IMG/VR virus record: IMGVR_UViG_3300027708_000034
Location: 1 to 18,331 of that record
Length of the DNA stretch: 18,331 bases
Strand: one strand, 5' to 3'
From: a virus
Lineage: Duplodnaviria; Heunggongvirae; Uroviricota; Caudoviricetes
Positions 6,073 to 12,828 of this stretch are shown here, piece by piece. Below the pieces are notes generated by a model. It worked only from the letters and a program-made list of their open reading frames with translations, searched no databases and was not told where the DNA came from. Made by a program: the position numbers and the translations under genes. Positions within the stretch are counted from its first letter, which is position 1. Each line of letters opens with the position of its first letter.

Positions 6073-6164
6073 TGGTACCAGCGGAGGGAATCGAACCCTC
6101 TCAAGAAGGCTAATCTGGCCCTAAAAGTCTTATAAGGACTCTCTGACTTCCAAGTCTCGCTGGC
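6073..6164 (-). tRNA. atypical tRNA with TAT (Ile) anticodon, mini D arm and long variable arm
   Basis: GCCAGCG/CGCUGGU-A-CCA; D arm ACU-UGGA-AGU; AGAGUC-CUUAUAA-GACUUU; T arm GAGGG-UUCGAUU-CCCUC. Confidence 0.75.
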
Positions 6165-10086: not shown

Positions 10087-10162
10087 TGGGGTGCCTTACC
10101 GGTATCGATCCGGTACTACCGCTTTCACAGAGCAGGGTGCAGGCCACTACACTAAAGACACC
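10087..10162 (-). tRNA. tRNA-His(GTG)
   Basis: G-1:C73, loop CUGUGAA, T loop AUCGAUA, CCA. Confidence 0.92.
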
Positions 10163-10281
10163 ATATATAAAAACACATTCGTTTCCTGACTTTACGGCGG
10201 TAGTGCCCTACATCTTTGGGATAGCCCCTGCGTCCAGTTGCCAGGTATCCAGTTTGCCGTTGAATGTGTTTTTATATATGG
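10161..10281 (-). ncRNA. spacer RNA closed by a perfect 20-bp stem
   Basis: ccatatataaaaacacattc / gaatgtgtttttatatatgg; internal ACGGC/GCCGU, GUAG-GGCA-CUAC, GGG-GCUAU-CCC. Confidence 0.65.
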
Positions 10282-10354
10282 TAGGACTGCCCGGACTCGA
10301 ACCGGGAACTGGCAGATTAAAAGTCTGCTGTGATCACCATTTCACCACAATCCC
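10279..10354 (-). tRNA. tRNA-Lys(TTT)
   Basis: Loop CUUUUAA, CCA. Confidence 0.92.
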
Positions 10355-10359
10355 ATATA

Positions 10360-10435
10360 TGGTCCCTGGCGACAGATTCGAACTGTCACCTCATCGGTTA
10401 AGAGCCGAGTACGCTACCATTAACGCCAGCCAGGG
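10360..10435 (-). tRNA. tRNA-Lys(CTT)
   Basis: Loop CUCUUAA, CCA. Confidence 0.93.
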
Positions 10436-10501
10436 TTGATTGCATATTAAATTGTCTTTAATGTGCCAACCCTAGACCATATACAGGATCCAAGATTGAC
10501 A

Positions 10502-10525
10502 CTATCGTTTCGCTGAACGTTTCAT
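10502..10525 (-). CDS. putative regulatory mini-ORF MKRSAKR
   Basis: AAGGAG SD at 10532-10537; ATG AAA CGT TCA GCG AAA CGA TAG; followed by competing hairpins. Confidence 0.6.
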   Translation of the reverse strand: MKRSAKR

Positions 10526-10557
10526 GTCGTTCTCCTTGTTAAAAAATTAAAAACTCG

Positions 10558-10633
10558 TGGCAGGGGAGATGGGATTCGAACCCATGATGACGATTTCAAA
10601 GACCGTTGCCTTAGGCCACTAGGCGACACCCCA
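10558..10633 (-). tRNA. tRNA-Gln(TTG)
   Basis: Loop CUUUGAA, U1:U72 mismatch, G73, CCA. Confidence 0.92.
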
Positions 10634-10643
10634 ACAAAATAAA

Positions 10644-10706
10644 CAGGATAGATTTTTACTGGTTGAATTAAAAGTTCAGAGTATAAATTTTGCTGTTACT
10701 ATCCTA
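10644..10706 (-). ncRNA. ACAGCAA-motif RNA copy D, with a Lys anticodon stem-loop
   Basis: AGGAUAG/CUAUCCU; UGAA-CUUUUAA-UUCA. Confidence 0.75.
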
Positions 10707-10711
10707 AAACT

Positions 10712-10786
10712 TGGCTCCCCAGCGTGGGATCGAACCACGGACCAATTGGTTAACAGCCAACTACTCTACCGCTGAGCTACTAGGGA
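10712..10786 (-). tRNA. tRNA-Asn(GTT)
   Basis: Loop CUGUUAA, G73, CCA. Confidence 0.95.
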
Positions 10787-10790
10787 ATAA

Positions 10791-11130
10791 AATTCTGCGA
10801 AAATGTTATGAGGGCTCTTACCCCACTGTTGTTTGTATAGGTTGCGCGGCCTATACGTCCCGGACACATTTCCTGACCCGGCAGTGTTTACTTTGTGGCT
10901 CTTGCTTTCCACTTGATTCTTACTTATTAAATTTGAGAGTAGTTCCACCCATATTATTGGAACCATTCACCTTAGTATATAAAGCCGGCAAGGTCTCGGT
11001 ACGCCACTTGGGATACTTGACAAAGGTGCTCCGATGCGTTTACGGGACTCGAACCCGTCCTTCTTTTTCATTAGTCGGCTCTTCGAAGAAGCCTTCTAGC
11101 GAGTCTTTCTCTTGCTAACACTCTCAAAAC
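10791..11130 (-). ncRNA. long structured spacer (one about 340-nt RNA or two RNAs) containing an orphan T arm
   Basis: UUUGAGAGU/ACUCUCAAA; ACGGG-UUCGAGU-CCCGU; GUUCCA/UGGAAC; CACUG/CAGUG junction; GUAUAGG/CCUAUAC. Confidence 0.55.
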
Positions 11131-12426: not shown

Positions 12427-12461
12427 AAAAAGCAAAACCCCAGGGTGTTTAGTCCTGGGGT
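12427..12461 (-). terminator. intrinsic terminator of the putative attenuator
   Basis: ACCCCAGG (12461-12454) / CCUGGGGU (12444-12437) followed by UUUGCUUUUU. Confidence 0.8.
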
Positions 12462-12486
12462 CCTTTGGAGTTAGCGTGTATTTGTG

Positions 12487-12633
12487 TTACACTACAATCT
12501 CCTGGGACCCCGGGGTATTCCCCTCTGGTGTGCGATCATATGAGAGACTATTAATCGCTAACCAAGCAGAGGGCATAAAGCCTGCCTGTTTGGCTATAGA
12601 GCAATGTTGTCTAATATACGATACGCTTTTCAT
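12487..12633 (-). CDS. putative attenuator leader peptide (48 aa, all 20 amino acids)
   Basis: MKSVSYIRQHCSIAKQAGFMPSAWLAINSLSYDRTPEGNTPGSQEIVV; GGAAAG upstream of ATG; lies between promoter and terminator. Confidence 0.7.
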   Translation of the reverse strand: MKSVSYIRQHCSIAKQAGFMPSAWLAINSLSYDRTPEGNTPGSQEIVV

Positions 12634-12691
12634 TTTACTTTCCAATTTACCTTTAAGTTTCATACACTGCATTATTGCTGCGTATGTGTTA

Positions 12692-12720
12692 ATTATACAT
12701 TTATTTAGTCCTGCTGTCAA
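12692..12720 (-). promoter_or_regulatory. sigma70-type promoter heading the tRNA array
   Basis: TTGACA-17-TATAAT (consensus). Confidence 0.85.
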
Positions 12721-12799
12721 CCGCTTTCTACATTTTTGACAAAAATTTTTAAATTATTTTTCGTCTATGTTTCTGTGGCTTCTAACAAAACATAGCTCT

Positions 12800-12828
12800 A
12801 TTGTATAGTAGTTCTGCTGCCTTGTCAA
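12800..12828 (-). promoter_or_regulatory. tandem upstream sigma70-type promoter
   Basis: TTGACA-17-TACAAT. Confidence 0.75.

Follow-up and report, generated by a model that had tools for sequence, protein, structure and literature searches.

The subject of this report is a short leader in front of two lysine tRNA genes of a Caudoviricetes virus. It lies in a stretch of DNA of 18,331 nucleotides (nt), hereafter the window, which is the first 18.3 kb of the 122.6-kb IMG/VR virus record IMGVR_UViG_3300027708_000034 (record completeness estimated at ~34%). The window carries 40 tRNA genes, every one on the minus strand (ARAGORN), and one of them, tRNA-Lys(CUU), is preceded by a Shine-Dalgarno (SD) sequence, a seven-codon open reading frame (mini-ORF) and two hairpins. 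Comparison with related phages and constrained folding suggest that this module is a ribosome-operated RNA switch on the maturation of tRNA-Lys(CUU).

A mini-ORF fused to a hairpin precedes two tRNA-Lys genes

Read along the minus strand, the module begins 21 nt 3' of a tRNA-Gln gene and consists, in order, of the SD, the mini-ORF, its UAG stop codon fused to hairpin A, hairpin C, tRNA-Lys(CUU) and tRNA-Lys(UUU) (Table 1). The element together with its tRNA measures ~180 nt. A first-pass annotation of this DNA had described a strong AAGGAG SD and a Lys/Arg mini-ORF, MKRSAKR, ahead of the two Lys tRNAs, as well as a 16-bp hairpin that starts in the stop codon and includes G-U pairs, and all of these were found where it had placed them. 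Hairpin A is paired at 16 of 16 positions (10502-10487 with 10478-10463), five of them as G-U. The leader (122 nt) folded at -31.5 kcal/mol compared with -19.6 ± 2.9 kcal/mol for shuffled sequences (z = -4.2), and the predicted fold of the whole unit comprises hairpin A, hairpin C and the tRNA cloverleaf. The tRNA-Lys(CUU) scored 51 bits against Rfam RF00005 (gathering threshold, 29), with the anticodon CUU assigned by ARAGORN.

An intergenic mini-ORF with a strong SD occurs before a tRNA only here among the 40 tRNAs of the window, and no codon-matched mini-ORF was found before the other 39. No U-tract lies behind hairpin A or hairpin C, and a terminator scan of the minus strand from 10436 to 10540 was empty, in agreement with the earlier suggestion that control is exerted without termination. 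An Rfam cmscan search (E <= 10, 10100-10900) returned only tRNAs and noise, and no T-box (RF00230).

Table 1 Features of the module and of its surroundings in the window
Feature	Position	Strand	Remarks
Shine-Dalgarno AAGGAG	10532..10537	minus	6 nt 5' of the ATG (10525-10523)
Mini-ORF MKRSAKR + UAG	10502..10525	minus	TAG at 10504-10502; its G is the first base of hairpin A
Lys codon 2 (AAA)	10520..10522	minus	proposed sensing codon
Penultimate Lys codon (AAA)	10508..10510	minus	proposed sensing codon
Hairpin A, 5' arm (arm a)	10487..10502	minus	first five bases, GUGUC, invariant
Hairpin A, loop	10479..10486	minus	8 nt; CUGUAUAU in the window, family consensus CCCGUAU
Hairpin A, 3' arm (arm a')	10463..10478	minus	putative switching strand; last five bases, GGCAC, invariant and never in helix B
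Hairpin C	10446..10462	minus	6 bp and 5-nt loop; contains the invariant AAA 10459-10457
Helix B target strand	10430..10439	minus	leader -4 to -1 and tRNA +1 to +6; spans the ribonuclease P (RNase P) cleavage site 10436/10435
tRNA-Lys(CUU)	10360..10435	minus	ARAGORN and Rfam; unusual C1-G72 and C2-G71 pairs; CCA encoded
tRNA-Lys(CUU) 3' end, G71 G72 A73 C74 C75 A76	10360..10365	minus	complementary to (U)GGUC at 10479-10475
tRNA-Lys(UUU)	10279..10354	minus	5 nt 3' of tRNA-Lys(CUU)
tRNA-Gln(UUG)	10558..10633	minus	upstream neighbour of the module in the window phage; ARAGORN and Rfam
Array-head sigma70-type promoters	12828-12800 and 12720-12692	minus	the latter with 12/12 matches

The module is conserved in front of tRNA-Lys genes of related phages

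Relatives were collected from IMG/VR with three scans, based on a 22-mer of the tRNA, on the ORF pattern and on a hairpin pattern blind to the ORF. The 22-mer, which was taken from the tRNA alone, matched 31 contigs, and the module was present in 28 of the 28 that had enough upstream sequence. The ORF pattern gave at least 119 loci. With the ORF-blind pattern, 99 distinct elements made of the hairpin and a tRNA-Lys were found, and 98 of them carried both the TAG fused to the hairpin and an in-frame ORF beginning with ATG; in the lone exception the TAG was mutated to GAG. Altogether at least 166 copies in at least 132 distinct forms were collected from IMG/VR phage contigs, so that the ORF and both competing helices, whose conservation in related phages the first-pass annotation had proposed to check, are present in more than 100 relatives. 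A Lys tRNA stood behind every collected copy (n = 166 among the matches listed; 156 CUU and 10 UUU), and the order tRNA-Lys(CUU) then tRNA-Lys(UUU) was kept in 139 of 156 relatives. An alignment of 119 sequences was used for the covariation and folding counts below.

The sequence upstream of the module varied. A near-consensus sigma70-type promoter ended 20-29 nt before the ATG in ~47 of 130 variants, and the others stood behind various tRNAs; because its upstream context is free, the module is self-contained. The fetched loci contain 3,699 tRNAs. Of the 335 Lys tRNAs among them, 168 had an SD-led mini-ORF in front, compared with 3-10% for the other 19 amino acids, where no mini-ORF recurred. 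A seemingly recurrent mini-ORF, 'MQRIANP', was rejected, as it is a translation of an upstream tRNA's anticodon arm.

Outside IMG/VR, a blastn search of 10200-10800 against 50,697 phage records for cultured relatives matched only the tRNA-Asn and tRNA-Gln parts and not the leader. A scan of GTDB genomes produced 19 pattern matches, five of which were real copies (L269, L272, L276, L279 and L286) and the others chance. The five lie on contigs in Planktophila, Polynucleobacter, Crocinitomicaceae, Haliscomenobacter (a 183-kb contig) and Bacteroidetes bins, that is, in unrelated freshwater taxa, and point to no single host; most likely they belong to phages whose contigs were mis-binned with bacteria.

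Some relatives showed rearrangements. Hairpin C is tandemly duplicated in four of them (L038, L041, L076 and L089), which lengthens the leader by ~30 nt and leaves the remaining module intact. In L126 the tRNA-Lys(CUU) has shrunk to a short remnant that keeps both acceptor strands (CCACGC...GCAUGGA), with an intact tRNA-Lys(UUU) behind it, as if the clamped tRNA had lost its interior through a deletion. In alignment columns 143-220, near-identical leaders precede tRNA-Lys(CUU) bodies of very different lineages, and the window and L057 share the same leader with different tRNAs. Judged from these sequences, leaders and tRNAs may have recombined frequently, with the CC...GGACCA ends retained.

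Arm a' covaries with the leader and the 5' end of the tRNA

In the window, the helix competing with hairpin A (helix B) joins 10475-10467 to 10438-10430 in 9 bp, which correspond to leader positions -3 to -1 and tRNA nt 1-6, and an extra G-U pair (10466:10439) is possible. The first-pass annotation had drawn exactly this helix. Over the 119 variants it was conserved, with covariation towards both the leader and the 5' end of the tRNA; its conserved core, however, comprises 7 bp between arm a' and leader -4 to -1 plus tRNA +1 to +3, rather than the acceptor strand from +1 to +6. The three outer pairs, to +4 through +6, form in just 30-48% of variants, and the deep invasion to +6 is a trait of the window's clade.

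The core exchanged its pairs between variants, with U-A 60, A-U 42 and G-C 2 at a'7:-1, and G-C 53 and U-A 29 at a'10:+3. Its covariation score was 0.197 compared with 0.104 ± 0.006 for column shuffles, which ignore relatedness (0/500), and was lower in every slid register. Duplexes between an arm and its cognate leader had a mean energy of -11.9 kcal/mol, those with non-cognate leaders -9.5 kcal/mol, and 0 of 5000 permutations reached the cognate value. Seven compensated sequence classes were distinguished, among them (| marks the 5' end of the tRNA) GAUGG with CCAU|CC, GUUGG with CUAA|CC or CAAC|C, GAUAGG with CUAU|CC, GGUAGG with CUUA|CC, GGUGG with ACAC|CC, and GAAGG with CUUU|CC. Where the tRNA starts with CCA rather than CCC, many leaders gain an extra C, and the string complementary to the arm is therefore kept.

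The competing structures were also maintained. Hairpin A was 86% paired, with double changes in 8 of its 16 pairs, and in its G-U pairs arm a' supplies the G, a pattern to be expected of a strand with two partners. The acceptor stem was 98.8% paired and five of its seven pairs covaried. Three bases 3' of hairpin A, the AAA at 10459-10457 was invariant (119/119), while the surrounding hairpin C varied. The loop CCCGUAU of hairpin A was nearly fixed and gave a weak pairing signal with the 3' arm of hairpin C (-4.2 vs -3.7 kcal/mol).

The predicted fold depends on the position of the ribosome

All 119 variants were folded by nearest-neighbour methods with the RNA masked up to a chosen leading edge of the ribosome. 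The footprint was that of toeprinting and mRNA-helicase work, with the leading edge ~+15 from the first P-site base and unwinding from ~+11. Without a mask, the acceptor stem was intact in 56 of 119 variants and helix B formed in 45. When the SD and the ORF were masked and hairpin A was left untouched, which corresponds to a ribosome initiating or stalled on Lys codon 2, the acceptor stem was intact in 103 and helix B was left in 3. Masking 5 nt of arm a, which mimics a ribosome with its A site on the penultimate AAA, gave a mixed result, with 51 intact acceptor stems and 54 B helices; 8 nt shifted this to 25 and 82, and 11-13 nt, as with a ribosome at UAG, to 10-13 and 87-89, respectively. 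Under the stop-codon mask the median energy advantage of helix B over the acceptor state was 5.3 kcal/mol, and the unmasked median difference was +0.5. The switch is thus thermodynamically plausible, and the constrained folds reproduce the logic of the first-pass annotation, in which a ribosome on the early codons leaves hairpin A and a folded tRNA, and one at the stop codon yields helix B at the expense of the acceptor stem. Its further claim that untranslated RNA lets the tRNA mature fared less well, as the naked RNA is predicted to be bistable and not simply on.

This bistability is due largely to the spacer between SD and AUG (mostly GACAU), which can pair with the GUGUC that is invariant in arm a. 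Of the 119 free folds, 55 contained this pairing; its strength was -6.3 kcal/mol, compared with -3.1 for shuffles (~1.6 standard deviations), and its GUGUC side, being invariant, is outside the reach of covariation. Tentatively, the models allow the spacer to serve as a fourth strand that could shut the start site after the clamp described below has formed.

The masked folds also revealed a second contact of arm a'. Its 5' half, (U)GGUC, matches the invariant tRNA 3' end GGACCA (119/119). With the ribosome at the stop codon, a' paired with the 5' side in 109 of the 119 variants, with the 3' end in 97 (82%; here UGGU faces ACCA in cis, both sides being invariant) and with both in 91 (76%), and shuffling of the arm reduced the double contact to 1%. 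Where arm a has C in some variants and U in others, the facing base of arm a' is kept as G, which fits the 3' contact. The ends of the tRNAs fit it as well. All 165 tRNA-Lys(CUU) genes directly behind the element start with CC and end with GGACCA; two that are not directly behind it, placed after tRNA-Lys(UUU), have the ordinary ends GG and CCACCA. In these models arm a' can clamp both ends of the acceptor stem, an addition to the earlier proposal.

The mini-ORF retains two lysine codons and its stop codon

Among 131 distinct forms, the mini-ORF had 6 (70 forms), 7 (50), 8 (10) or 9 (1) codons, all related by in-frame indels, and an SD-like motif was recognised in at least 124 of 130 variants. 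With its minimum of six codons, the ORF would keep an initiating ribosome clear of the hairpin. The stop codon was UAG in 131/131 forms and the penultimate codon AAA in 131/131, and codon 2 was AAA in 127 and AAG in 4. Codon 3 encoded Arg in 120 of 131 with synonymous variation (CGT 79, CGA 38 and CGC 3), the last residue could be R, L, P, Q, S, I or M, and the peptide was constant only at M-K...K-x. The choice of AAA and UAG is special to the mini-ORF, because its Lys positions are AAA in 98% of cases compared with 63% in the long ORFs of the phage, and the UAG found in all its forms accounts for only 10 of 54 stops there. Taken together, these patterns indicate a mini-ORF that probably is translated and behaves as a lysine-specific sensor. 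Reinitiation at a GUG overlapping the UAG was considered and rejected, as the frame is not conserved and meets a stop after three codons in relatives.

Proposed mechanism and alternative explanations

We regard it as probable, though well short of certain, that the module is a ribosome-operated RNA switch that blocks maturation of tRNA-Lys(CUU) when AAA is read fast and permits it when AAA is not. The G-rich arm a' would have two mutually exclusive partners, either arm a or both ends of the tRNA. Paired with arm a it would form hairpin A, and the pre-tRNA could form its acceptor stem and present a normal RNase P substrate. In the other state, its 3' half would pair with leader -4 to -1 and tRNA +1 to +3 (to +6 in the window phage), over the RNase P site, and its 5' half, (U)GGUC, with G71-A76. 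A ribosome would load on the strong SD as the transcript emerges. With prompt AAA decoding it would reach the UAG while the tRNA is being synthesised and cover ~11-13 nt of arm a, and the freed a' would capture the leader and tRNA 5' end first and the 3' end later, so that maturation would be blocked or delayed. RNase P should refuse the clamped precursor, because the acceptor top, the -1/+1 junction and ACCA are all paired to a'. With scarce Lys-tRNA(UUU), the ribosome would wait at codon 2, hairpin A would close once it is made, the tRNA would fold, and RNase P cleavage would then make the outcome irreversible. The penultimate AAA would be a last checkpoint before the ribosome enters the hairpin. 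We infer that the decision is a kinetic one taken during transcription; on balance, slow decoding of AAA would raise the output of phage tRNA-Lys and fast decoding would lower it.

Several points weigh against this interpretation. The sensor codon AAA is read by tRNA-Lys(UUU), and AAG is the codon of the tRNA that would be clamped. The model accounts only in part for the invariant penultimate AAA, because the fold with the ribosome at that position is mixed. Nearest-neighbour folding ignores tRNA tertiary structure, and since the unmasked states are nearly equal in energy, the clamp may be just transient. The 3' clamp rests on invariant bases, outside the reach of covariation. Provably independent compensatory events in helix B are few: the short leader is poorly resolved and its tree has only two contrasts on supported branches, which leaves a sign test on the tree powerless. 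Metatranscriptome data bear on the locus in a limited way. A 97-nt contig (depth 13.6) covers 10441-10535, the leader without the tRNA, and one contig from a relative runs across the 5' end of the tRNA (10360-10479); the four lake runs behind these data are kept as contigs, which record presence only, not ends, strand or level, and may include DNA carry-over, and stretches that lack contigs carry no weight.

The same switch could operate with the opposite sign, such that the clamp protects the 5' junction and the CCA end, or holds the precursor until tRNA-Lys(UUU) has been excised, and translation promotes tRNA-Lys(CUU). The clamp does cover exactly the two ends attacked by exonucleases and CCA-directed enzymes, the two states are near iso-energetic, and the invariant GUGUC/GGCAC, which never enters helix B, might be a toehold that reverses the clamp after the ribosome leaves. 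The clamp, however, unpairs C1-G72 and C2-G71 and makes the -1/+1 junction and A73-C75 double-stranded, all of them features that must be free for RNase P; nor does a protective clamp offer an obvious reason for Lys codons, and we consider this version unlikely. It is a little harder still to credit that the hairpins are mere processing or stability signals, for instance a cleavage site of RNase III or RNase E, or an element stabilising the 5' end of a polycistronic tRNA precursor, with the mini-ORF an unrelated passenger that protects by loading ribosomes or encodes a small basic peptide. The long regular duplex of hairpin A and its conserved loop would suit such a role, and the contig over 10441-10535 fits a stable excised leader, weakly so as contigs show no ends. 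Yet this leaves unexplained the covariation of the 3' arm with the leader and tRNA 5' end, the constant fusion of stop codon and hairpin, and why just two Lys codons are kept while residue 3 and the last residue vary.

Two further readings appear very improbable. The (U)GGU atop hairpin A could act as a T-box-like sensor in trans, binding the ACCA of uncharged tRNA-Lys with the AAA behind the hairpin as specifier; UGGU fits the UGGN:NCCA rule with discriminator A73, and that AAA is the invariant one at 10459-10457. The element of only ~80 nt, however, lacks an Rfam T-box match, Stem I, a K-turn and the 14-nt T-box sequence, its covariation with leader -4 to -1 points to an interaction in cis with the precursor, and a T-box has no place for a translated ORF. 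Equally remote is a transcription attenuator, in which the folds control intrinsic or Rho-dependent termination before the Lys tRNAs. The strand topology (1:2 with 3:4, or 2:3) does resemble that of trp-type attenuators, and the head of the same tRNA array (12828-12430) has promoters, a ~48-codon leader ORF and a hairpin with U-tract; the lack of a U-tract behind hairpins A and C and the empty terminator scan speak against it here, as does the identity of the fourth strand, which the acceptor stem of the tRNA itself supplies.

If the ribosome-operated switch on tRNA maturation is real, its trigger could be a host defence: an anticodon nuclease such as PrrC or the PARIS effector AriB would destroy tRNA-Lys, the ribosome would stall at AAA, hairpin A would stay shut and the phage Lys tRNAs would be released just as those of the host are lost. 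PrrC cleaves tRNA-Lys(UUU) (PMC10264068), and PARIS, which degrades the tRNA-Lys of the host, is overcome by a tRNA-Lys that T5 encodes (PMC11464382). These findings support, and do not establish, a counter-defence role, which we put forward as a speculative possibility, rather doubtful at present.

Other features of the tRNA array

The head of the array (12828-12430, minus strand) carries two sigma70-type promoters (Table 1), the ~48-codon leader ORF, which begins MKSVSYIRQH, and the hairpin followed by a U-tract near 12460-12430; the highest metatranscriptome depth of the region was recorded over this array head (12430-12828). Between tRNA-Lys(UUU) and tRNA-His, a 117-nt spacer (10162-10278, minus strand) has a 17-bp closing stem, UAUAUAAAAACACAUUC with its complement, around a core richer in G+C. 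It folded at -37.8 kcal/mol (z = -4.8), had no Rfam match and is spanned by a metatranscriptome contig covering 10086-10250; the spacer could represent either a structured RNA or an inserted element. At 6073-6164 (minus strand), ARAGORN called a tRNA-Ile with the anticodon UAU at an odd position, 31, and a length of 92 nt, well above that of the array's other Ile tRNAs; this may be a miscall or an insert-bearing tRNA.

Comparison with known systems

The output of bacterial and phage tRNA genes is usually held to be set by promoters and constitutive processing, and our literature searches brought up no tRNA gene described as being under the control of a leader peptide or mini-ORF. If the switch proposed here holds, regulated maturation of a single tRNA would join the known outputs of leader-peptide switches. 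It also bears on why phages carry tRNAs, as the Lys tRNAs alone of the 40 in the window carry a putative decoding sensor. Should the counter-defence role prove true, the module would be a virus-encoded, ribosome-based alarm acting directly on tRNA maturation.

Its closest counterparts are the attenuators trpL, hisL, pheL, thrL and pheM of pheST, which likewise combine a short translated leader that bears cognate codons with mutually exclusive overlapping helices chosen by ribosome position, the decision probably being made during RNA synthesis. In those systems, however, the output is a terminator, whereas here it would be the tRNA acceptor stem, so that folding and processing would be regulated. 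The present module further differs in having just two regulatory codons, in that the stalled ribosome would spare the first helix rather than cover it, and in that the controlled product would be a tRNA serving the sensed amino acid. The leader at the array head is another putative ribosome-sensing leader before phage tRNA genes, but it has the form of a classical terminator switch for the whole array. Translational attenuation of ermC and cat is similar in that a ribosome translating a mini-ORF rearranges a hairpin further 3' once transcription is under way, and no terminator takes part; there, drug- or peptide-induced arrest frees the SD of a downstream protein gene, whereas here the peptide sequence is not conserved and two tRNAs follow, with no downstream ORF or SD.

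The minigenes at the bar sites of phage lambda are also very short ORFs with strong start signals and an irrelevant product, and act through peptidyl-tRNA drop-off of the last tRNA; in the module, by contrast, the final codon is unconstrained and the ORF is fused to what is probably an RNA switch. For the 3' clamp, precedents come from the GGU motif in the P15 loop of RNase P RNA, which pairs with R73-C74-C75 in the same scheme as the (U)GGU of a', and from the T-box, where UGGN pairs with tRNA NCCA and N matches the discriminator (PMC7778990, PMC7583486). In the folding models, the (U)GGU of a' can pair with A73-C74-C75(-A76) by this scheme. In contrast to both, the pairing here would be in cis on the precursor, would continue into G71-G72 and would be joined with pairing across the 5' cleavage site, and the module has none of the other defining parts of a T-box. 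Based on the sequence comparison and folding models, the module would extend ribosome-mediated RNA switching to a new kind of output, namely how a tRNA folds and matures, and otherwise follow the known logic of leader peptides.

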